DNA from: Escherichia coli
GTDB taxonomy: Bacteria > Pseudomonadota > Gammaproteobacteria > Enterobacterales > Enterobacteriaceae
Length of the DNA: 64,000 nucleotides
Assembly: GCF_030013205.1 (NCBI RefSeq)
Contig: NZ_CP122648.1
Direction: 5' to 3' (one strand)
Positions 2,205-20,493 of this stretch are shown here, one piece after another (positions within the stretch are counted from its first letter, which is position 1; each line of letters starts with the position of its first letter). The translations under genes were made by a program, and so were the position numbers. The notes beneath the pieces are model-generated. The model saw nothing but the letters and a program-made list of their open reading frames with translations. It searched no databases and was not told where the DNA came from.

Positions 2205-2299
2205 TGGCGGAAGATCACAGGAGTCGAACCTGCCCGGGACCGCTGGCGGCCCCAACTGGATTTGAAGTCCAGCCGCCTCACCGGAGACGACGATCTTCC
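2205..2299 (-). tRNA. selC: tRNA-Sec (selenocysteine, anticodon UCA)
   Basis: Reverse complement reads GGAAGATCGTCGTCTCCGGTGAGGCGGCTGGACTTCAAATCCAGTTGGGGCCGCCAGCGGTCCCGGGCAGGTTCGACTCCTGTGATCTTCCGCCA, the 95-nt E. coli selC sequence with long variable arm and CCA end. Confidence 0.95.
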
Positions 2300-2563
2300 G
2301 CGCCTCGATTGCTACATGGAGGCGGGGCGCATTATAGCTACTTCCTTGAGTTTCTACATCCCCCAGATCAGTTTTTTCCGCCTAATACACGCAGCGTATT
2401 ATCACGAAAGCATTATAATTCATATAAAACCCATATTTTACAATGATATATGAGCGGAATTAACGCTACCACGATCACATAAAACAAGAATCATAAATTA
2501 ATAACCAGATATCGGAATATTCGCTCTCACAGGGATGGTTTACAAAATGCGTTATCGGTCTCA

Positions 2564-2579: not shown

Positions 2580-3485
2580 CTATATTTCCAGACATCTGTT
2601 ATCACTTAACCCATTACAAGCCCGCTGCCGCAGATATTCCCGTGGCGAGCGATAACCCAGCGCACTATGCGGATGCCATTCGTTATAATGCTCGAACGCC
2701 TCTGCAAGGTTCTTTGCTGCCGTTAACCCGTCTGGTTTGGGCATGATACTGATGTAGTCACGCTTTATCGTTTTCACGAAGCTCTCTGCTATTCCGTTAC
2801 TCTCCGGACTCCGCACCGCCGTGTTCTTCGGTTCAAGTCCCAACATCCGGGCGAACTGGCGTGTTTCATTAGCCCGGTAGCATGAACCATTATCCGTCAG
2901 CCACTCCACTGGAGACGACGGAAGATCGTTGCCGAAGCGGCGTTCCACCGCTCCCAGCATGACGTCCTGTACTGTTTCACTGTTGAAGCCGCCGGTAGTC
3001 ACCGCCCAGTGCAGTGCCTCACGATCACAGCAGTCCAGCGCGAACGTGACACGCAGTCTCTCTCCGTTATCACAGCAGAACTCGAACCCGTCAGAGCACC
3101 ATCGCTGATTGCTTTCTTTCACGGCCACTCTGCCTGTATGTGCCCGTTTCGATGGCGGTACAGCAGGTTTTCGCTCAAGCAACAGCGCATTCTGGCGCAT
3201 GATCCGGTAAACACGTTTGGCATTGATCGCAGACATACCATCAAGTTCTGCCTGTCTGCGAAGCAGCGCCCATACCCGACGATAACCATACGTGGGCAGC
3301 TCTCCGATAACATGGTGTATACGGAGAAGCACATCCGTATCATCAGTGTGACGACTGCGGCGGCCATCCATCCAGTCATCGGTTCGTCTGAGAATGACGT
3401 GCAACTGCGCACGCGACACCCGGAGACAACGGCTGACTAAGCTTACTCCCCATCCCCGGGCAATAAGGGCGCGTGCGCTATCCAC
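2580..3485 (-). CDS. insD: IS2 transposase OrfB (InsD) frame, 301 aa; expressed as OrfAB fusion by -1 frameshift
   Basis: ORF track protein [30 protein letters not shown]... with DDE integrase-type core; recognised as IS2 InsD. Confidence 0.9.
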
Positions 3486-3808
3486 TTTTTTGCCCGTCCA
3501 TATTCAACGGCTTCTTTGAGGAGTTCATTTTCCATCGTTTTCTTGCCGAGCAGGCGCTGGAGTTCTTTAATCTGCTTCATGGCGGCAGCAAGTTCAGAGG
3601 CAGGAACAACCTGTTCTCCGGCGGCGACAGCAGTAAGACTTCCTTCCTGGTATTGCTTACGCCAGAGAAATAACTGGCTGGCTGCTACACCATGTTGCCG
3701 GGCAACGAGGGAGACCGTCATCCCCGGTTCAAAGCTCTGCTGAACAATTGCGATCTTTTCCTGTGTGGTACGCCGTCTGCGTTTCTCCGGCCCTAAGACA
3801 TCAATCAT
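3443..3808 (-). CDS. insC: IS2 OrfA (InsC) HTH protein, 121 aa
   Basis: [41 protein letters not shown]...; start placed at the internal Met of the 136-aa track ORF to give the 121-aa InsC. Confidence 0.85.
3485..3491 (-). promoter_or_regulatory. Programmed -1 ribosomal frameshift heptamer A-AAA-AAG at the insC/insD overlap
   Basis: Minus strand reads GCA AAA AAG TGG in the InsC frame; the -1 frame continues GTG GAT AGC... which is the InsD N-terminus (MDSARAL). Confidence 0.7.
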
Positions 3809-3899
3809 CTGTTCTCCAATGACTAGTCTAAAAACTAGTATTAAGACTATCACTTATTTAAGTGATACTGGTTGTCTGGAGATTCAGGGGGCCAGTCTA

Positions 3900-7651: not shown

Positions 7652-7683
7652 GCCGGATACGAATGGTTTTGTGTCGTATCCGG
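7652..7683 (+). terminator. Stem-loop (GCCGGATACG ... CGTATCCGG) just after the yicI stop; REP-like or terminator hairpin
   Basis: Perfect 9-10 bp inverted repeat 14 bp after the yicI TAA; no strong U-tract. Confidence 0.45.
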
Positions 7684-7932
7684 TAAATAATCTCACATCT
7701 GGTAATAAATATTTCTTCCATCGTATTTGCGAGCATGATCACGATTATTCATCACGAAAATGTGATCTGTGCCGAAAAATATCTATTAACCGCCCCGTTT
7801 TGTTTTATACATGTCCGGACTACGGACAGATTTTAGTATTGTTGTGAAATTATTCTGCTTTATATTTACCCTCAGAGATGGCAACTGAAGCTCTTCCACA
7901 TGGGGCTTCTTAATCTGTGATAAGGGTAAAAA

Positions 7933-9486
7933 ATGCAAATGATTACCTCGCGACAAAACAGATTATTACGATTCCTTTTACCACGAAGGGAATATACGAC
8001 TATTGTTACGATTGCCGGCTATTTAAATGTTTCGGAAAAAACCATTCAACGTGATTTACGTTTACTTGAGCAATGGCTGGAACAATGGCGAATAACCGTT
8101 GAGAAGCGTGCTGGCGCAGGTGTGATGTTAGACTCGAAGAATATTACTGATTTGCTGCATCTTGATCATTTGTTGGGAGCAGAATGTGAAGAGATTGATG
8201 GTGTAATGAATAATGCCAGGCGCGTTAAAATAGCGTCGCAGTTATTAAGTGAAACACCGAATGAAACGTCGATCAGTAAATTGTCAGAGCGCTATTTTAT
8301 CAGTGGAGCCTCTATTGTTAATGACCTGAGAGTGATTGAGTCCTGGCTTGCGCCGTTGGGGTTATCATTGATCCGAAGCCCAAGTGGTACGCATATTGAA
8401 GGTAGTGAAGGGCAAGTCCGACAGGCAATGGCATTACTGATTAACGGCATTATTAACCATAATGAGCCGCAAGGTGTCGTGTATTCACGTCTGGATCCCG
8501 GAAGTTATAAAGCATTAGTCCATTATTTTGGAGAAGAAGAGGTGTTATTTGTCCAGTCATTGTTACTGGATATGGAAAATGAATTAAGTTGGTCTTTGGG
8601 AGAGCCTTATTACGTTAACATTTTTACTCACATCCTTATTATGATGTATCGCAACACGCACGGGAATGCGTTATCCAGAGAAGAAGATCAAACCAGGCAA
8701 TATGATGAAAATATCTTTAATGTTGCCAGTCAGATGATTCATAAGATAGAACAACGAATTGCACATACATTGCCCGATGATGAAGTCTGGTTTATTTATC
8801 AATATATCATTTCATCAGGTGTGGCGATTGATGGACAAAAAGATGTTAGCATTATTTCACATATGCAGGCCAGCAATGAAGCGCGTCTGATTACCTGGCG
8901 TTTAATTACGGTATTCAGTGACATCGTGGACTGCGATTTTAGTGAAGACAGCGCATTATATGATGGCTTGTTGGTTCATATTAAGCCGCTGATTAACCGA
9001 CTAAATTATCGCATTCATATCCGTAATCCATTGCTGGAAGATATTAAAGCAGAATTAGCGGATGTCTGGCGGTTGACGCAATATGTGGTGAATCAGGTAT
9101 TTAAAACCTGGGGTGAGAATGCAGTGAGCGAGGATGAAGTAGGTTACCTGACCGTTCATTTTCAGGCTGCGATGGAGCGGCAAATTGCCCGTAAACGTGT
9201 ATTACTGGTCTGTTCAACCGGAATCGGAACTTCGCATCTACTGAAAAGCCGTATTCTGCGAGCATTTCCTGAATGGACGATTGTTGATGTTATTTCAGCA
9301 GCGAATTTATCACAGGTTTTGCCTGACAATATCGAACTGATTATTTCGACCATTAATTTGCCTACAGTCACTATGCCGGTCGCTTATGTTACCGCTTTTT
9401 TTAATGATGCCGATATTAAGCGAGTCACTGAAATGGTGATTACGGAAAAATTACATCATGCGACATCTCGGGTCGTTGAAATTTAA
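7933..9486 (+). CDS. PRD-containing transcriptional activator (BglG/LicR/MtlR type) with N-terminal HTH and C-terminal PTS EIIB-like domain, 517 aa
   Basis: N-terminal winged-helix region (TIVTIAGYLNVSEKTIQRDLRLLEQ), central PRD-like regions, C-terminal LLVCSTGIGTSHLLKSRI (EIIB-Gat-like phosphorylatable Cys motif); heads a PTS operon. Confidence 0.7.
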   Translation: MQMITSRQNRLLRFLLPRREYTTIVTIAGYLNVSEKTIQRDLRLLEQWLEQWRITVEKRAGAGVMLDSKNITDLLHLDHLLGAECEEIDGVMNNARRVKIASQLLSETPNETSISKLSERYFISGASIVNDLRVIESWLAPLGLSLIRSPSGTHIEGSEGQVRQAMALLINGIINHNEPQGVVYSRLDPGSYKALVHYFGEEEVLFVQSLLLDMENELSWSLGEPYYVNIFTHILIMMYRNTHGNALSREEDQTRQYDENIFNVASQMIHKIEQRIAHTLPDDEVWFIYQYIISSGVAIDGQKDVSIISHMQASNEARLITWRLITVFSDIVDCDFSEDSALYDGLLVHIKPLINRLNYRIHIRNPLLEDIKAELADVWRLTQYVVNQVFKTWGENAVSEDEVGYLTVHFQAAMERQIARKRVLLVCSTGIGTSHLLKSRILRAFPEWTIVDVISAANLSQVLPDNIELIISTINLPTVTMPVAYVTAFFNDADIKRVTEMVITEKLHHATSRVVEI

Positions 9487-9512: not shown

Positions 9513-9983
9513 ATGGACATAACAAAAATCCTGAATACGAATCGCGTTATTTTAGATATGCAAGCGACGAATAAAGCGGAGGCGATTGAAGAATTAACTA
9601 ATCTTCTCAAAAAAGATGGTGCGATCGATTGTCGGGAAACCTTTATTAAAGATGTCTGGCAGCGCGAAGCGGAAGGCTCGACTGGTTTTGAAAATCATAT
9701 TGCGATCCCGCATGGTAAATCTTCTGCGGTAATTAATACCACGCTGGCTATCGGGCGTACCCGGCAGGATATTCCCTGGGAAACACTGGATGGCAGTAGC
9801 GTACGCTGTATTATTTTATTTGCGGTACGTCTTGAAGATCAAAATACCACTCATATCCGTTTACTTTCCCAGGTCGCGGGCGCGCTTGCAGATGATGACA
9901 TCATAGCGCAATTGCTGGTTGAGACGAGCCCGCAAAAAATCATTGATCTCTTTAGTCAGTATGCACAATCCGATGTCTACTAA
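9513..9983 (+). CDS. PTS EIIA component, fructose/mannitol (type 2) family, 156 aa
   Basis: ...GFENHIAIPHGKSSAV... conserved phospho-His region of EIIA-2 domains. Confidence 0.75.
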   Translation: MDITKILNTNRVILDMQATNKAEAIEELTNLLKKDGAIDCRETFIKDVWQREAEGSTGFENHIAIPHGKSSAVINTTLAIGRTRQDIPWETLDGSSVRCIILFAVRLEDQNTTHIRLLSQVAGALADDDIIAQLLVETSPQKIIDLFSQYAQSDVY

Positions 9984-10000: not shown

Positions 10001-10315
10001 ATGAATATTGTCTGTGTTGCCGCCTGCACGGCGGGTATTGCTCACACCTATATTGCTCGTGAAAAGTTAATTAAAGGGGCAAAAGCACTGGGCCACACCA
10101 TTAAAGTTGAAACCCAGGGAACCATTGGTACAGAAAACGAATTGCAGGCGGCAGAGATCTCTGCTGCTGACGTCGTGATTCTTGCTGTGGATGTGAAAAT
10201 AAAAGGAGAAGAACGTTTTACCAATAAACGCATTGTGCGAGTAAAGACAGAGATCGTCATTAAATCGCCCGTTCAATTTCTTGAAAAGGTCGAAAAATCA
10301 CTGGGAAATAAATGA
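10001..10315 (+). CDS. PTS EIIB component, fructose-like family, 104 aa
   Basis: MNIVCVAACTAGIAHTYIAREKL...: N-terminal CxxCxxGIAHT phospho-Cys motif typical of fructose-type EIIB. Confidence 0.75.
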   Translation: MNIVCVAACTAGIAHTYIAREKLIKGAKALGHTIKVETQGTIGTENELQAAEISAADVVILAVDVKIKGEERFTNKRIVRVKTEIVIKSPVQFLEKVEKSLGNK

Positions 10316-10339: not shown

Positions 10340-11431
10340 ATGAAAGAAAATAAAATTCCGGTTTCACAGGAAATTAAAAAACATTTATTAACCGGCATCT
10401 CGTGGATGATACCCCTTATTGTGGCCGCCGGGATATGTATTGCGTTGGGGCAAGTTCTTGGCGGTACAGATGTTGGTGAAAAAACAGGAACAATCCCGTG
10501 GATGCTTAATCAGATTGGCGGCTGGGGAATGGGGCTGATTGTGCCGCTGATTAGCGCGGCAATTGCCTATTCTATTGCCGATCGTCCCGGATTTGCCCCG
10601 GGCCTGATTGTCGGCTTTCTCTGTGGGCAAATCCATACCGGATTTATTGGCGGTATGTTGGGTGGTTTCCTGGTGGGCTACACCATTTTGCTACTTAAAC
10701 GCTATATTCGCCTGCCGCAGTCGATGCAAGGACTCATGCCAATCATGGTGTTGCCGGTATTAAGCACCATTATCGGTGGGCTGTTAATGATGACGCTGAT
10801 TGGTAAACCCATCGCCTGGTTACAAGAAGCACTGATTCATTTGCTCGAGTCGATGCAGGGCGGATCGCGCTTCCTGATGGGGGCCATACTTGGCGCGATG
10901 GCAACCTTCGATTTCGGTGGTCCGGTCAACAAAACCATGTCGCTGTTTTCCGATGGCTTGCTGGTCAGTGGCGTCTACGGACCAGAAGCCGTGAAATTTG
11001 TCGGCTCAATCATCCCTCCGTTTGGCATCACACTTTCGTTCTTACTGACACGCCATAAATACACCCGTGCGGAGCGCGAGGCGCTGAAAGCCGCGTTTCC
11101 GATGGGGATCTGCATGATCACTGAAGGAGTCATTCCGATCGCCGCGCGTGACCTGTTGCGAGTAGTGGGATCTTGTGTGGTGGCATCGGCGGTCGCGGGC
11201 GGCTTAATCATGGTGTGGGGCGTGGAGAGTCCGGTTCCACATGGCGGCATGTTTGTTGTGCCTCTGTTCACCCATCCTCTGCTGTTTTGCCTGGCGCTGG
11301 GTATAGGCACGGTGATTTGTGGCGTGATGCTTTCACTCTGGAAGAAACCGGTAACGGAACGCGACGAAGAGTTTGACGAACTGAGCGATCAAAAGCTGAA
11401 AGATGAAGAGATCACTTTCACCCTCGAATAA
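10340..11431 (+). CDS. PTS EIIC permease component, fructose-like family, 363 aa
   Basis: Polytopic membrane protein immediately downstream of EIIA/EIIB; Gly-rich TM helices typical of EIIC-Fru. Confidence 0.7.
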   Translation: MKENKIPVSQEIKKHLLTGISWMIPLIVAAGICIALGQVLGGTDVGEKTGTIPWMLNQIGGWGMGLIVPLISAAIAYSIADRPGFAPGLIVGFLCGQIHTGFIGGMLGGFLVGYTILLLKRYIRLPQSMQGLMPIMVLPVLSTIIGGLLMMTLIGKPIAWLQEALIHLLESMQGGSRFLMGAILGAMATFDFGGPVNKTMSLFSDGLLVSGVYGPEAVKFVGSIIPPFGITLSFLLTRHKYTRAEREALKAAFPMGICMITEGVIPIAARDLLRVVGSCVVASAVAGGLIMVWGVESPVPHGGMFVVPLFTHPLLFCLALGIGTVICGVMLSLWKKPVTERDEEFDELSDQKLKDEEITFTLE

Positions 11432-11442
11432 CCGGAGGCCCT

Positions 11443-12294
11443 ATGTTTGCCGATATGAAAAGTATGGTGATGAAAGCCTGGCATGAACATTACGCCTTGC
11501 TGGCGATCAACTGTATGAATCTGGAAAGTGCTCGCGCAGCTATCCGCGTGGCGGAGAAGAATCGCGCTCCGATCATTCTCAATCTCTATCAGGGGCATCT
11601 GGCGCATTTTCCTGCACCCGTCGCGGCGGCAGTGGTTAAAACGCTCGCGGAATCTGCCTCAGTACCGGTCACTCTGGCGCTTGATCATGGCAAAAATCCG
11701 GACTGTATTCGTCAGGCGTTTCGTGCTGGTTTCAGCGGATTAATGATTGATGCTTCTGCTTTTCCCCTGGAGGAAAACGTGCGCCAGACCAAGGCGGTGG
11801 TGGAACTCGCCGCCAGCGCGCAGCTCTGCGTTGAAGGCGAACTGGGCCATCTGGCAGATGCGCCGCGTTACGACCAGGCCGCCAATGCAGACATGATGAC
11901 GCAACCCACTGATGTGGAAGCGTTTATCGCGCAGACAGGCATTGATCTACTGGCCGTCTCGGTAGGCACGGCGCACGGCATGTACGCGCCTGGTGTTGTA
12001 CCTGCTATTGATTTTCAGCGTCTGGCGGAGATTTTCCACTGCTCGAGCGTGCCTCTGGCATTACATGGTGGTAGCGGTACGCCGTTCGATCAGCTCCAGC
12101 TCTGTACGACTCTGGGGGTAGCAAAAATCAACGTGGGGGCGGCCATTTTTGAACGGGGGAAATCCGCGCTCCTGCATACCCTCTGTCACGATATATCCAT
12201 TGAACTGGTGGACGCGCTGAAAGCTATGGAACTGGCCTTCGAAGAAGCGATTACACCGTATTTACAGGCGAGCGGCTCTATCGGCAAAGCCTGA
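11443..12294 (+). CDS. Class II ketose-bisphosphate aldolase (GatY/KbaY/FbaA family), 283 aa
   Basis: Contains LDHG, GTAHG and HGGSG motifs of class II zinc aldolases. Confidence 0.75.
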   Translation: MFADMKSMVMKAWHEHYALLAINCMNLESARAAIRVAEKNRAPIILNLYQGHLAHFPAPVAAAVVKTLAESASVPVTLALDHGKNPDCIRQAFRAGFSGLMIDASAFPLEENVRQTKAVVELAASAQLCVEGELGHLADAPRYDQAANADMMTQPTDVEAFIAQTGIDLLAVSVGTAHGMYAPGVVPAIDFQRLAEIFHCSSVPLALHGGSGTPFDQLQLCTTLGVAKINVGAAIFERGKSALLHTLCHDISIELVDALKAMELAFEEAITPYLQASGSIGKA

Positions 12295-12374: not shown

Positions 12375-13235
12375 ATGTTAGTTTCGATGAAAGAATTACT
12401 GCAACCTACCCGCCAGCACGGCTTTGCCATTGGCGCATTTAATGTGGCGGATAACTGTTTCCTTCGCGCAGTCGTGGATGAAGCAGAAGCGACAAATACT
12501 CCGGCGATTATTGCCATCCATCCCAGCGAACATGATTTTGTGGGCGATGCCTTTTTCGCTCACGTTCGCGAAATTACCCAGCGTAGTCCGGTCCCGTTTG
12601 TACTGCACCTCGATCATGGTGCCTCTGTAGAGCATGTTTTGCGTGCGATTCGCTGCGGATTTACCTCAGTAATGATCGACGGTTCGCTGCTGCCGTATGA
12701 AGAAAACGTGGCGCTGACCGCAGAAGTGGTTCGCCTCGCTCACGCGGTTGGAGTGTCGGTTGAGGGTGAACTGGGAACCATCGGACAAACAGGAACGTCG
12801 GTAGAAGGTGGTGTTTCACAAGTGACCTACACAGATCCGGCGCAGGCCGCCGATTTTATTGCTCGTACAGGTGCCGACACTCTGGCTGTGGCGATTGGTA
12901 CAGCGCATGGCATCTATCCAAAAGGGATGCAGCCGAAGCTGCAAATGGACATTTTGCGCGACATTGCCGGACGTATTGATATTCCGCTGGTGCTACACGG
13001 TGGTTCGGCAAACCCGGACGCGGAGATTGCTGAATCAGTTACGCTCGGCGTCGGCAAAATCAATATCTCCAGCGATATGAAATACGCCTATTTCCAGAAA
13101 GTGCGTGAAATTCTCGCTAAAGAGAGCTGGTGGGACCCGAACGTCATCTATCCGGATGCGATTAACGCGGCGCGGGAAGTCATTCGCCACAAAATGAAAC
13201 TGTTCGGTTCGCTCGGTAAAGCATCACTGTACTAA
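12375..13235 (+). CDS. Class II ketose-bisphosphate aldolase paralogue (GatY/KbaY family), 286 aa
   Basis: LHLDHG, GELG, GTAHG, LHGGS motifs; second tandem paralogue. Confidence 0.75.
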   Translation: MLVSMKELLQPTRQHGFAIGAFNVADNCFLRAVVDEAEATNTPAIIAIHPSEHDFVGDAFFAHVREITQRSPVPFVLHLDHGASVEHVLRAIRCGFTSVMIDGSLLPYEENVALTAEVVRLAHAVGVSVEGELGTIGQTGTSVEGGVSQVTYTDPAQAADFIARTGADTLAVAIGTAHGIYPKGMQPKLQMDILRDIAGRIDIPLVLHGGSANPDAEIAESVTLGVGKINISSDMKYAYFQKVREILAKESWWDPNVIYPDAINAAREVIRHKMKLFGSLGKASLY

Positions 13236-13240
13236 GCCAG

Positions 13241-13264
13241 AAGGGCGGGGTGACCCGCCTTTTA
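13241..13264 (+). terminator. GC-rich hairpin plus T-run between aldolase 2 and the kinase (possible intra-operon attenuator or partial terminator)
   Basis: GGGCGGG-GTGA-CCCGCCT followed by TTTT, 6 bp after the aldolase stop. Confidence 0.4.
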
Positions 13265-13282
13265 CGCAACAAGGAACGAGAT

Positions 13283-14215
13283 ATGCACTATCTGGGGTTG
13301 GATATTGGTGGGACCAAAATCGCCGCCGTCGTCATGGATGCGCATGGCTGGGAGATTCGCCGTTACCGCTGCCCGACGCAAAAGTCGACATATCAACAAT
13401 TTGTCTCATGCGTTGTGGCGTTTATCGAGCAGATTAGGCGGGACGTTCAACGACCGATGCTGACAGGGATCGCCTTACCCGGCAGTATCTCGCCACTCAC
13501 TGGCCTGATTAAAAACGCGAATATTCAGGTGATTAACGGTCATGCGTTACAGGCTGATTTGCAGCAATTGCTTGGGCAACCGGTGGTGATAGCCAATGAT
13601 GGTAACTGTTTCGCGCTATCAGAAGCTTGCGACGGTGCCGGGCAAGATTATGACGTGGTATTTGGTATTACGCTTGGTACGGGCTGCGGCGGTGGCATTG
13701 CCATCAAGCAACGACCGTTTATAGGGGCCTGGGGAAATGCTGCCGAATGCGGTCATATCACGTTGCCAGGCTATACGGAGCAGGAAGATGGTCCATCAGT
13801 CAGTTGCTATTGCGGCAAACACAACTGCGTGGAGTCGTTTGTTTCCGGCAGCGGTTTTAGTGAACGCTATCAACAGATGACTGGTAACTTGCTCACTCCT
13901 GCGGCGATTGTCACCCTGGCACAACGTGGTGATGCTTGTGCCATGCAGCAGGTGGCACGTTTTCGCCAACAGCTTGCCCGCACGCTGGCAACCATCGTTA
14001 ACGTTGTTGACCCTGGCGTGATTGTGATCGGCGGCGGGCTTTCGAATGTGGAACTGCTTATCACCGCTCTGAACGCAGAAGTTGCTCCACTGGTTTTCAC
14101 CGATCAATTCACCACTCCCATTGTAAAAGCACAGCACGGCGACAGTAGCGGAATGCGTGGCGCTGCCTGGCTTGCTATGCGCAACGGAGAAGCCAATGAA
14201 ACGTTCACAAATTAA
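13283..14215 (+). CDS. ROK-family sugar kinase, ~310 aa
   Basis: MHYLGLDIGGTKIAAV... N-terminal ATP motif and CYCGKHNCVESF zinc-binding ROK signature; start moved to the ATG with AAGGAA Shine-Dalgarno rather than the upstream GTG of the track ORF. Confidence 0.75.
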   Translation: MHYLGLDIGGTKIAAVVMDAHGWEIRRYRCPTQKSTYQQFVSCVVAFIEQIRRDVQRPMLTGIALPGSISPLTGLIKNANIQVINGHALQADLQQLLGQPVVIANDGNCFALSEACDGAGQDYDVVFGITLGTGCGGGIAIKQRPFIGAWGNAAECGHITLPGYTEQEDGPSVSCYCGKHNCVESFVSGSGFSERYQQMTGNLLTPAAIVTLAQRGDACAMQQVARFRQQLARTLATIVNVVDPGVIVIGGGLSNVELLITALNAEVAPLVFTDQFTTPIVKAQHGDSSGMRGAAWLAMRNGEANETFTN

Positions 14216-14876
14216 TTATGTTATTGATAAAGCACATGCCATTGCGCAGACCTTCCGCGTTTGTTTGCCAGAGTTCGCCTATTTTACGGTGGATGACTGG
14301 CTGCAGCTGGAACGGGATAACTGGCAAGAAGTGGTCGACTTACAGCTCGGTTGGGATATCACCGATTTTGGTCGTGGTGATTTCAACCAAACGGGACTAA
14401 CACTGCTAACGATGCGCAACGGCGCGCTGGGGTCGGCGGCATATCCAAAACCGTATGCTGAGAAAATGTTGCAGATCCAACAAGATCAGCAGACTCCTTG
14501 GCATTTTCACACCCACAAAATGGAAGATATCCTCAATCGGGGCGGTGGAGACTTATGCATGCAGTTGGCCTGGGCCAACGAAGCCAATCTCTGTGATGAT
14601 CAACGAGTCATTACCGTGAGTGTTGATGGTCAGCGGCGTACCATGAAACCTGGTGAAACGCTGGTGCTAAAGCCGGGGCAGGGCATTTGCCTGCCGCCGC
14701 GTCTGTATCATCGCTTCTGGGCGGAAAAAGCGTTTGTTCTCGGCTGGGAAATTTCGATGGTAAATGATGACCAACATGATAACCATTTTCTTGAGCCGGG
14801 AGGACGTTTTCCGGCGATAGAAGAAGATGAACCGGTGAAATGGTTATTGTGTAGTGAGTATGCTGTTTTGCGGTAA
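14196..14876 (+). CDS. Cupin-fold sugar isomerase, D-lyxose/D-mannose isomerase-like, ~226 aa
   Basis: Size and His-rich segment (WHFHTHKMEDI) resemble cupin-type D-lyxose isomerases; start taken at the ATG preceded by GGAGA; overlaps the kinase stop. Family assignment is from memory. Confidence 0.5.
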   Translation: MKRSQINYVIDKAHAIAQTFRVCLPEFAYFTVDDWLQLERDNWQEVVDLQLGWDITDFGRGDFNQTGLTLLTMRNGALGSAAYPKPYAEKMLQIQQDQQTPWHFHTHKMEDILNRGGGDLCMQLAWANEANLCDDQRVITVSVDGQRRTMKPGETLVLKPGQGICLPPRLYHRFWAEKAFVLGWEISMVNDDQHDNHFLEPGGRFPAIEEDEPVKWLLCSEYAVLR

Positions 14877-19626: not shown

Positions 19627-20493
19627 ATGAAAAAGCGTCGGAAGGAACCGGAAACGCTACGTGAACACTGTCGCCATATTTTTGGTGACGAGCCGCCAGT
19701 GCTCTGTGTATGGGAAACGGAATTTGATTACGCAGATGCCGAACTCAAGGCGCTGGCGGCTAAAGAGTGGCAACAGATAGGCGAATGGGATTTGAGTGCT
19801 TACTATGTACTCAATCTCGTTTATAACGAACCGATGCAAATAGAGCTGTTTCGCTATCTGTTTCCGCTATGCCTGGCGCAATGGCATGAAACCGTTTTAG
19901 CTGGCGGTTATGGTGATCACTTCGAAGAATCCTTAATGAAGGCATTGCGTCGGCCCTATCTCTGGCAGGAGATGATGAATGCTTCCCAACGCCAGCAGGT
20001 ACGGCAATTTTTACTGGAAACCGCGTTGCAGCGTATGGATAACGAGCGTGGTTTCAATAATGTTCTTTGCTGGCTGGCGGTGTTCAATACTCTGGGCGGG
20101 GCCGCGCCGTTAATTCATTCTCTCTGGTCAAGCTGGTGGGTGCTGGATACGCCGGGAAAAGCGGTGTGTGCTATTCAGTATGCCGCGCATCTAATTTATC
20201 CCATAGAAGCCAATCCGTTATGGTCGCAAGAATGGTTAGGCTGGGGGCATCCATTAGGTCATAAAGATGGCTGGTCCTCTGAGAATCGCGCTTTTCTTCG
20301 CCAAATGTTAACACCTGAAATGATTGTGGCTGGCGTACAGGCAGCGGCTGAAATTCTGCGTGGTGAACCGGAAGGCGCAATGGCGGCGCGAATTGCGCAG
20401 GATGCGTATGAGGCAGTGGATATCATCACTATCCAGATTGAAGATTTACTGCGTGACTTGTCTTGTGATGAGTCTGGTCATGCGTTGGAGTAG
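19627..20493 (+). CDS. Hypothetical protein, 288 aa, no recognisable domain
   Basis: ATG 3 nt after the gltS stop; C-terminus overlaps the recG stop by 16 bp; E. coli-like codon usage; Trp-rich, no predicted TM segments. Confidence 0.6.
   Translation: MKKRRKEPETLREHCRHIFGDEPPVLCVWETEFDYADAELKALAAKEWQQIGEWDLSAYYVLNLVYNEPMQIELFRYLFPLCLAQWHETVLAGGYGDHFEESLMKALRRPYLWQEMMNASQRQQVRQFLLETALQRMDNERGFNNVLCWLAVFNTLGGAAPLIHSLWSSWWVLDTPGKAVCAIQYAAHLIYPIEANPLWSQEWLGWGHPLGHKDGWSSENRAFLRQMLTPEMIVAGVQAAAEILRGEPEGAMAARIAQDAYEAVDIITIQIEDLLRDLSCDESGHALE

Follow-up and report, generated by a model that had tools for sequence, protein, structure and literature searches.

A PRD-containing activator that ends in an EIIB-like domain and lacks the EIIA-like domain of its longer counterparts, in an operon with a free-standing EIIA, raises the question of whether it is a reduced or unusually wired member of the MtlR/LicR-type regulators or an ordinary protein in its native form. 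The gene lies in a 64,000-nt stretch of Escherichia coli DNA (RefSeq assembly GCF_030013205.1, contig NZ_CP122648.1; hereafter the window), and the original prediction, made from the letters alone, had suggested an unusual phosphorelay for its induction control. We find that this is the already described regulator gene of the published frz operon of ExPEC/APEC (strain BEN2908; Rouquet et al. 2009, J Bacteriol 191:4427). More specifically, both frz typing primers (PMC6238794) match within the gene with 0 mismatches, at 8338-8357 (+) and 9161-9180 (-), and the segment that they bound in the window is 843 bp, the published product size, which identifies the gene as frz. The ORF is real and has coordinates identical to those of RefSeq CDS WP_001177975.1. 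The frz locus of the window measures about 7.2 kb, in agreement with the 7227-bp region reported for strain BEN2908. By Pfam and NCBIfam, the gene content of eight consecutive ORFs agrees with what we take to be the published frz list: an activator, the three components of a fructose-type PTS, a pair of class II aldolases, a ROK kinase and a cupin protein. The BEN2908 activator is reportedly 'of the MgA family'; it is the same gene as ours, and no difference between the two was detected. Outside the primary frz paper we found no fuller description of the regulator in the literature, the other frz papers giving phenotypes only.

The frz operon is an accessory fructose-family PTS/aldolase/kinase/isomerase operon (Table 1). 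Its island sits between yicI and yicH; of 5426 complete genomes, 1601 carry the entire locus. The window matches E. coli chromosomes at 100% identity, and a cluster of 517-aa regulators at 98% identity holds 3599 member sequences. The strain from which the window comes is closest to swine ETEC isolates. The regulator is the first gene of the operon; 26 nt separate its stop codon (9484-9486) from a complete gene for a free-standing EIIA, as had been predicted, which scores 126.9 bits against TIGR00848 (cut-off 103.5). The second aldolase matches NF006042 at 526 bits. A promoter and terminator scan and a repeat search of the 290 bp upstream of the regulator returned no convincing sigma-70 promoter or operator, and no signal rose above chance; the yicI terminator probably accounts for the hairpin at 7653-7683.

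Table 1. Positions of the frz regulator gene, its domains and the downstream operon genes in the window.
Feature	Position	Strand	Product and sites	Evidence
frz operon regulator gene	7933..9486	+	ATG start; 517 aa; five-domain PRD-containing activator without EIIA domain	ORF and translation, Pfam
DNA-binding region	7951..8439	+	HTH_11, aa 7-63; Mga-type HTH, aa 100-169	PF08279 E=2.7e-14; PF05043 E=1.9e-13
PRD1	8497..8814	+	~aa 189-294; His233 (8629-8631); second canonical site is Tyr291 (8803-8805)	
PRD2	8875..9183	+	~aa 315-417; His349 (8977-8979); His409 (9157-9159)	Pfam PRD, aa 324-413
EIIB(Gat)-like domain	9193..9483	+	aa 421-517; Cys427 (9211-9213) in loop VCSTGIGTSH	
Free-standing fructose-type EIIA	9513..9983	+	156 aa; His67 (9711-9713) in IAIPHG	PF00359 E=1e-34
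Free-standing fructose-type EIIB	10001..10315	+	104 aa; Cys9 (10025-10027)	PF02302 E=6e-19; TIGR00829 above cut-off
Fructose-type EIIC	10340..11431	+	363 aa	TIGR01427 311 bits, above cut-off
Two class II ketose-bisphosphate aldolase genes	11443-12294, 12375-13235	+		PF01116 E=2e-75, 8e-91
ROK-family sugar kinase	RefSeq start ~13283, end 14215 (region 13250..14876)	+		PF00480 E=3e-74
Cupin D-lyxose/D-mannose isomerase	RefSeq start ~14196, end 14876	+		PF07385 E=2e-86

Annotation with Pfam recovered two PRD stretches in the regulator and no EIIA, that is, neither a complete canonical domain set nor a PRD-less protein, and the natural full form is HTH, Mga-HTH, PRD1, PRD2 and EIIB(Gat)-like domain, with no EIIA-like domain. 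The HTH with a Mga-like HTH and the two PRDs with conserved histidines are features of MtlR/LicR/ManR-type activators. Alignment to the PRDs of LicT places His233 on the His of 'DHINFAIQR' and Tyr291 on that of 'FIALHIVNA', leaving PRD1 with one canonical His and not two, while in PRD2 His349 aligns with the His of 'FVTHLKFFAQR' and His409 with that of 'YLTIHIER'. Across an alignment of 32 sequences spanning Gammaproteobacteria, Bacillales and Sebaldella, His233 and His349 are invariant and Tyr291 is nearly so; His409 is kept in the clade of short regulators and is Tyr in several long relatives.

The C-terminal module had been called EIIB(Gat)-like, and this label withstood closer inspection. 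PTS_IIB (PF02302) matches aa 422-498 with 24.2 bits, just above the cut-off of 23.6, and the motif LLVCSTGIGTSHLL is present. C427, S428, G430, G432 and H435 are invariant in the 32-sequence alignment. When the C-terminal 101 aa were searched alone, the best PDB sequence match was the galactitol EIIB GatB (5gqs; E=0.04), end to end and with the Cys aligned, which makes the label appropriate. The AlphaFold model has a strand at 422-427, a helix at 431-444 and four strands in all, and BLASTP found no similarity between this domain and the operon's own EIIB. On these comparisons, the domain of the regulator is Gat-like, not Fru-like.

Is an EIIA-like domain really missing, and is this unusual? 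The last residue of the regulator, aa 517, comes immediately after the EIIB-like fold, and Pfam returned no match to PTS_EIIA_2 (PF00359) in it; in the AlphaFold model a single helix (aa 492-516) closes the protein straight after the four-stranded fold, leaving no room for a further domain. The predicted absence is therefore genuine, since relatives at 38-44% identity, 653-684 aa long, carry about 140 extra aa that fold as an EIIA(Mtl/Fru) domain. Full-length orthologues nevertheless measure 514-536 aa in Enterobacterales, Vibrio and Celerinatantimonas. Among the 150 closest relatives, taken as representatives of 50%-identity clusters, 46 are 470-540 aa long, too short for an EIIA domain; the Cys loop is kept in 39 of these 46, and PTS_EIIA_2 was absent from all 10 short representatives scanned. 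About a third of the closest relatives thus also do without EIIA, which makes such a regulator ordinary, and the EIIA-less architecture, judged by these comparisons, is the native full form of the frz regulator, conserved and common. The data did not bear out a single loss of EIIA in Gammaproteobacteria: under Fitch parsimony, 144 representatives require a minimum of 8 changes between the long and short states. In a quick neighbor-joining tree, built without support values, the frz regulator falls in a clade of 27 leaves, 26 of them short. Given the number of state changes, the domain may have been lost repeatedly on this tree.

The long relatives help to place the frz protein. Those from Bacillales and Paenibacillus (for example, 653 aa in Peribacillus and 662 aa in Paenibacillus) are 38-44% identical to it over the whole 517 aa, and their operons resemble frz in encoding a free EIIA, EIIB, EIIC and class II aldolase, that of Peribacillus also a ROK kinase and lyxose-isomerase-like genes. 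They differ from the frz regulator in their EIIA-fold tail, in which no His is conserved. The EIIA nature of the tails was settled by structure prediction and Foldseek together with one Pfam match, Pfam detecting EIIA in only 1 of 13 tails. The short form has a recurrent setting too: in Pantoea, in Selenomonadaceae and on one metagenomic contig, a short regulator again shares a cassette with a free EIIA, EIIB, EIIC and class II aldolase. Here and in six other loci the regulator is the first gene of a PTS operon.

How might such a regulator be controlled? In MtlR, phosphorylation of PRD2 (His342) by HPr renders the protein active, whereas phosphorylation by EIIA(Mtl) at Cys419, in the EIIB(Gat) domain, renders it inactive (PMC3217849, PMC11537053, PMC8560693). 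The induction switch of MtlR is thus the EIIB(Gat)-like Cys, phosphorylated by the free EIIA of the transporter, with the HPr site in PRD2 (PMC11537053, PMC3217849). B. subtilis MtlR, as also ManR and LicR, is like the frz regulator in its HTH_11 and Mga HTH, its two PRDs with canonical His, its EIIB(Gat)-like domain with a regulatory Cys (Cys419 in MtlR, Cys427 in frz) and its linkage to a PTS operon with a free-standing Mtl/Fru-family EIIA. Unlike MtlR, the frz regulator has no C-terminal EIIA(Mtl)-like domain (the MtlR His599 region) and has Tyr291 at the second His position of PRD1. Because the PRD2 HPr site and the EIIB Cys are both invariant, we predict that the canonical wiring is retained without the EIIA-like domain, and the frz regulator probably shares the HPr-to-PRD2 and EIIA-to-Cys logic of MtlR. 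The suggestion of an unusual phosphorelay finds no support in this comparison, nor in the conservation and frequency of the EIIA-less form.

Our favored view, which we hold to be reasonably likely, is that of a pathway-specific frz activator with activation by HPr at PRD2, inhibition by EIIA at Cys427 and a dispensable EIIA-like domain. By homology, P~His-HPr would phosphorylate His349 of PRD2, and possibly His409, and this would be required for activity, so that frz expression would follow the general supply of PTS sugars. Without frz substrate, P~EIIA(Frz), encoded by the next gene, would pass its phosphoryl group to Cys427 of the EIIB-like domain and turn the regulator off; the free-standing EIIA is the probable phosphoryl donor. 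When the substrate is transported, phosphoryl groups would drain to the sugar, leaving Cys427 dephosphorylated, and the operon, including the regulator gene itself, would be activated. The EIIA-like domain, already His-less in the long relatives, would be dispensable for this circuit. One element may not carry over from B. subtilis MtlR, in which the two C-terminal EII-like domains have a further role, since through them the EIIB domain of the permease tethers the regulator to the membrane (PMC8560693): as the EIIA-like domain is missing and the operon EIIB is soluble and free, not fused to a permease, such tethering may be absent or different in frz.

The domain count also invites comparison with the Mga/AtxA family of regulators (PCVRs), defined by the order HTH, HTH, PRD, PRD and EIIB-like, without an EIIA-like domain (PMC8560693). 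The five-domain layout of this family (AtxA, 4R6I; MgaSpn, 5WAY; E. faecalis, 3SQN; AcpB; MafR) is identical to that of the frz regulator, whose best full-length Foldseek matches are AtxA (4r6i), the E. faecalis Mga-family protein (3sqn) and MgaSpn (5way), and its N-terminal half matches the NCBIfam model AcpB/EbpR/MafR (NF053736) with E=5e-23. Moreover, the fim switch moves towards OFF when frz is deleted (PMC8777976), and the Cys of the EIIB domain has been implicated in dimerization of AtxA and RivR (PMC8560693). The regulator could on these grounds have a broader role, for example in phase switching of type 1 fimbriae, with an EIIB-like domain that only dimerizes, a Cys that accepts no phosphoryl group and HPr alone acting on the PRDs. 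We regard this as unlikely. The NF053736 match scores 82.3 bits, below the cut-off of 130, and covers aa 5-164 only; full-length identity to PTS-operon-linked ManR-like proteins reaches 38-44%, whereas AtxA is matched only at E=2e-6. The PCVRs of Gram-positive pathogens act as stand-alone regulators of virulence genes rather than of an adjacent PTS operon, and their PRD histidines are poorly conserved, 'not spatially conserved' in the words of PMC8560693; the frz regulator, in contrast, is gammaproteobacterial, its gene heads a PTS operon in every relative examined, its PRD histidines lie at the canonical LicT/MtlR positions and its Cys loop is invariant. The fim effect, in addition, was seen for deletion of the operon, not of the regulator. 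We class the protein with the DNA-binding PRD regulators, MtlR/ManR/LicR-like by sequence and Mga/AtxA-like in domain count.

A second alternative concerns the free EIIA, which could act as a dedicated, physically associated partner of the regulator, a domain supplied in trans to replace the lost His-less tail. It would bind stably, and its phosphorylation state would be sensed by binding rather than by phosphotransfer to Cys427. The two genes are indeed close neighbors: of seven loci examined from different phyla, six show a gap of at most 26 nt or an overlap, and in all six same-strand loci the gene directly after the regulator encodes a free EIIA whose IAIPHG His is intact, the EIIA operon of the seventh being divergent from the regulator. 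A Vibrio locus has two tandem EIIA paralogues after the regulator, and the His-less tail of the long relatives suggests a binding rather than a catalytic role. We nonetheless consider this partnership improbable, and the replacement of a lost tail that it implies quite doubtful, since long relatives that bear the tail also have an adjacent free EIIA, which is therefore not a replacement. The free EIIA also scores above the cut-off of the transporter-EIIA model and keeps its catalytic His, the PHG motif being retained in 8 orthologous EIIAs that are 44-64% identical to it, and the invariant Cys P-loop argues for phosphotransfer. If the partnership were real, regulator and EIIA would be a conserved pair of sensory genes that had travelled between Firmicutes and Gammaproteobacteria along with the transporter, and the duplicated Vibrio EIIAs would have divided the work, one copy serving transport and the other regulation.

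Two further readings carry hardly any weight next to the preferred one, a native MtlR-like activator without an EIIA-like domain. That the gene is a longer regulator truncated or split by nonsense mutation, frameshift or gene fission, with the downstream EIIA as its former C-terminal domain, might be suggested by that gene lying 26 nt downstream on the same strand and belonging to the Pfam family (PTS_EIIA_2) of the MtlR/LicR-type C-terminal domain; it is a most remote prospect and for practical purposes refuted, as a length of 514-536 aa is kept over many genera and thousands of sequences and the tail coexists with a separate free EIIA in the long relatives, which shows that the free EIIA is not a split-off domain. 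Moreover, the free EIIAs are 44-64% identical among themselves, whereas no similarity of the tails to them was detected (hhalign against a five-sequence alignment of free EIIAs gave a probability of 0.8%, which taken alone says little about the nature of the tails). The EIIA gene also comes with an RBS and a start of its own, its product fits the transporter IIA model over the full length, and the operon would otherwise lack an EIIA for transport. The RefSeq product name, 'BglG family transcription antiterminator', implies a BglG/LicT-type RNA-binding function, to which PRD matches to the GlcT and LicT models and a weak terminator-like hairpin upstream (7812-7828) might lend color, but this has next to no likelihood and is refuted by domain content: the N-terminus is HTH_11 plus Mga HTH with no CAT RNA-binding domain by Pfam, the scores fall far short (GlcT 65 bits against a cut-off of 320, LicT 46 against 300, in the PRDs only, and BglG 24 against 322), and one terminator-like site was found where 1.9 are expected by chance.

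The regulator and the frz operon are thus already known, and there is nothing unusual in the architecture. The significance lies mainly in correct annotation, the RefSeq name being misleading for a protein with DNA-binding HTH domains and no CAT, and frz being an accessory sugar operon and a marker of ExPEC/APEC fitness and virulence. As far as the sequences tell, EIIA-less, Cys-retaining PRD activators paired with a free EIIA are a large and widespread group; this breadth, together with the tail without conserved His in the long cousins, points to the EIIA-like domain as the part that MtlR-type regulators can most easily do without. As a minimal system native to E. coli, the frz regulator could be a useful model of how phosphorylation of a Cys controls a PRD activator.

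The regulator ORF translates as a real gene, and many stops interrupt the opposite strand. A Pfam search found its domains as listed in the table, and PTS_EIIA_2 was not found in the 517-aa protein. The loop motif quoted in the original prediction is present, with its cysteine at residue 427. When the last 101 residues were searched alone, the top-ranking PDB sequence was that of GatB, the galactitol EIIB (5gqs, E=0.04), which aligned end to end with regulator KRVLLVCSTGIGTS opposite KQVLVACGAGIATS, so that the label 'EIIB(Gat)-like' is fair. An AlphaFold model (32-sequence alignment, mean pLDDT 77) has five domains and closes with a four-stranded EIIB-like fold and a single terminal helix (residues 492-516). 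Its best full-length structural matches were AtxA (4r6i), an E. faecalis protein (3sqn) and MgaSpn (5way), all EIIA-less Mga/AtxA-type proteins. The prediction of a PRD regulator that ends in an EIIB(Gat)-like module and lacks an EIIA-like domain is thus borne out, as is that of a free-standing EIIA: a spacer of 26 nt with a GAGG ribosome-binding site separates the regulator stop codon from a complete gene for a Mtl/Fru-family EIIA (PF00359, E=1e-34), whose score for the fructose IIA model TIGR00848 also exceeds the cut-off.

Features of the regulator, its operon and the surrounding DNA
Feature	Nucleotides (strand)	Residues	Details
Regulator ORF	7933-9486 (+)	517 aa	ATG start
HTH_11		7-63	Pfam
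Mga-type HTH		100-169	Pfam
PRD, two stretches		best 324-413	Pfam, total 105 bits
PTS_IIB		422-498	Pfam, 24.2 bits (cut-off 23.6)
H233, PRD1		233	aligns with His of LicT DHINFAIQR; invariant
Y291, PRD1		291	aligns with His of LicT FIALHIVNA; nearly invariant; Tyr, not His
H349, PRD2		349	aligns with His of LicT FVTHLKFFAQR; invariant
H409, PRD2		409	aligns with His of LicT YLTIHIER; conserved in short clade, Tyr in several long relatives
C427 codon	9211-9213	427	EIIB-like loop
frz primer site	8338-8357 (+)		zero mismatch
frz primer site	9161-9180 (-)		zero mismatch
EIIA(Frz)	9513-9983 (+)	156 aa	free-standing
EIIA(Frz) His67	9711-9713	67	
Inverted repeat	7653-7683		perfect, 10 bp (CCGGATACGA ... 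TCGTATCCGG)
ROK kinase start	13250		GTG, ORF call; RefSeq ~13283 (kinase and isomerase genes together span 13250-14876)
Isomerase start	14157		GTG, ORF call; RefSeq ~14196
Hypothetical ORF	19627-20493 (+)	288 aa	WP_063086436.1
tRNA-Sec selC	~2206-2300 (-)		
IS2 (IS3 family)	~2581-3809 (-)		just upstream of yicJ

The regulator gene is an already published E. coli accessory regulator. It is followed in the operon by fructose-family EIIA, EIIB and EIIC, two class II ketose-bisphosphate aldolases, a ROK kinase and a cupin D-lyxose/D-mannose isomerase, and RefSeq places the locus between yicI and yicH. The frz operon was described as a 7227-bp genomic region of the ExPEC/APEC strain BEN2908 that promotes fitness and type 1 fimbriae. 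The abstract of Rouquet et al. 2009 on frz reportedly lists 'a transcriptional activator of PTSs of the MgA family'. Both frz typing primers match inside the regulator gene and span 843 bp, the published product size (PMC6238794), which ties this ORF directly to the published operon. Over 7.4 kb surrounding the gene, the sequence is 100% identical to that of chromosomes from E. coli isolated from swine, and of 5426 complete E. coli genomes, 1601 carry the whole locus (at least 80% of the query). The ROK kinase and isomerase genes, whose ORF-call starts lie upstream of the RefSeq ones, overlap under either set of starts. On its left, the frz insertion is bounded by an inverted repeat just past the yicI stop, probably a REP-like element or the terminator of yicI.

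Elsewhere in the window, selC has the IS2 element on one side and a rhuM fragment on the other, and the region resembles what is left of a selC-associated island. The ORF right after gltS, which RefSeq labels only 'hypothetical protein' and for which no Pfam match was found, overlaps at its 3' end with the end of recG, a gene on the opposite strand, and may be a small accessory insertion.

The unusual phosphorelay wiring suggested from the domain layout was not supported. The layout is a variant that is already known and common. HMMER, run exhaustively against 1.84 billion representatives, returned 6382 homologues; among the best 150 of these, 46 are 470-540 aa long, with no space for EIIA, 69 are 626-720 aa long, and the VC(S/T)xGxGT loop is kept in 39 of the 46 short ones. 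Ten short representatives were scanned: all carry HTH_11, Mga and two PRDs, nine carry PTS_IIB and none carries an EIIA domain. On a quickly built NJ tree with 144 representatives and without support values, Fitch parsimony gave at least eight short/long state changes, and the frz regulator fell in a clade of 27 leaves, 26 of them short. Of the short relatives that are not frz orthologues, three were examined (from Selenomonadaceae, from an unassigned metagenomic contig, and a paralogue in Pantoea agglomerans), and each stands first in a cassette that also holds a free EIIA, EIIB, EIIC and class II aldolase. Firmicutes (Peribacillus, Paenibacillus), Selenomonadaceae and Gammaproteobacteria have the same type of cassette, with a fructose-type EIIA (loci L002, L003, L006, L007 and L008 in other genomes). 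The free EIIAs of relatives share 44-64% identity with the E. coli EIIA, all with the IAIPHG histidine, and this identity across the three groups suggests that the whole cassette spread horizontally. In Vibrio salinus (L004), the regulator orthologue is followed by two tandem free EIIA paralogues (10584-11051 and 11651-12118 of that locus; 57% and 64% identity to the E. coli EIIA, PHG histidine in both), and ribulose-phosphate epimerase, transaldolase and transketolase take the place of the aldolases.

Alignment showed that the candidate phosphorylation sites of the regulator are conserved, and the EIIB-like loop has C427, S428, G430, G432 and H435 as invariant residues. The four aligned LicT histidines are His100, His159, His207 and His269. 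The spacing of H233, Y291, H349, H409 and C427 mirrors that of H230, H289, H342, H399 and C419 in B. subtilis MtlR (PMC8560693). In MtlR, His342 of PRD2 is phosphorylated by HPr~P, a step required for activity, Cys419 of the EIIB(Gat) domain is phosphorylated by free EIIA(Mtl), which inactivates the protein without substrate, and deletion of the transporter genes makes expression constitutive (PMC3217849, PMC11537053). By this precedent H349 would be the target of HPr~P and C427 that of EIIA(Frz) phosphorylated at His67. Neither step needs an EIIA-like domain, so its absence would require no rewiring. MtlR is also tethered to the membrane by its permease, via its EII-like domains (PMC8560693); the frz regulator, in contrast, lacks the EIIA-like domain and its operon EIIB is a free soluble protein, and this tethering layer may differ.

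Salmonella, Klebsiella, Citrobacter, Pectobacterium, Brenneria, Erwinia, Pantoea, Vibrio and Celerinatantimonas have orthologues with 51-98% identity. Every full-length orthologue has 514-536 aa, and one 98%-identical 517-aa cluster holds 3599 member sequences. More distant relatives, with 38-44% identity and from Bacillales, Paenibacillus and Sebaldella, have 653-684 aa, aligning across all 517 residues and then continuing for about 140 more. The tail, modelled from 13 sequences (pLDDT 83), adopts an EIIA(Mtl/Fru) fold with 1xiz, 3oxp and 1a3a as top PDB matches; only two of its residues are invariant, neither of them histidine, and only 1 of the 13 tails reached the Pfam EIIA model. Free-standing EIIA, EIIB and EIIC and an aldolase also adjoin these long regulators, so EIIA(Frz) is not a split-off regulator domain. 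The tight adjacency of the regulator and EIIA genes and the EIIA duplication in Vibrio hint at a stable complex in which EIIA serves as a domain in trans, although the long relatives have both tail and free EIIA. A global role like that of the Mga/AtxA-type virulence regulators, with a purely structural cysteine, is possible but less likely than MtlR-like control: the gene is operon-linked in every relative examined, the histidines occupy canonical positions, and the protein scores below the AcpB/EbpR/MafR model cut-off. The missing EIIA domain is not an accident, and truncation or fission of a longer regulator is refuted by the length kept across orthologues and by the long relatives holding tail and free EIIA together. 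An antiterminator function is refuted by the two DNA-binding HTH domains and by the lack of any CAT RNA-binding domain in Pfam and NCBIfam searches.

The analysis has two useful by-products. The name that RefSeq gives the product, 'BglG family transcription antiterminator', is misleading, given those HTH domains and no CAT domain, and within the subfamily the EIIA-like tail of the long relatives, which lacks a conserved histidine, appears to be the expendable domain.
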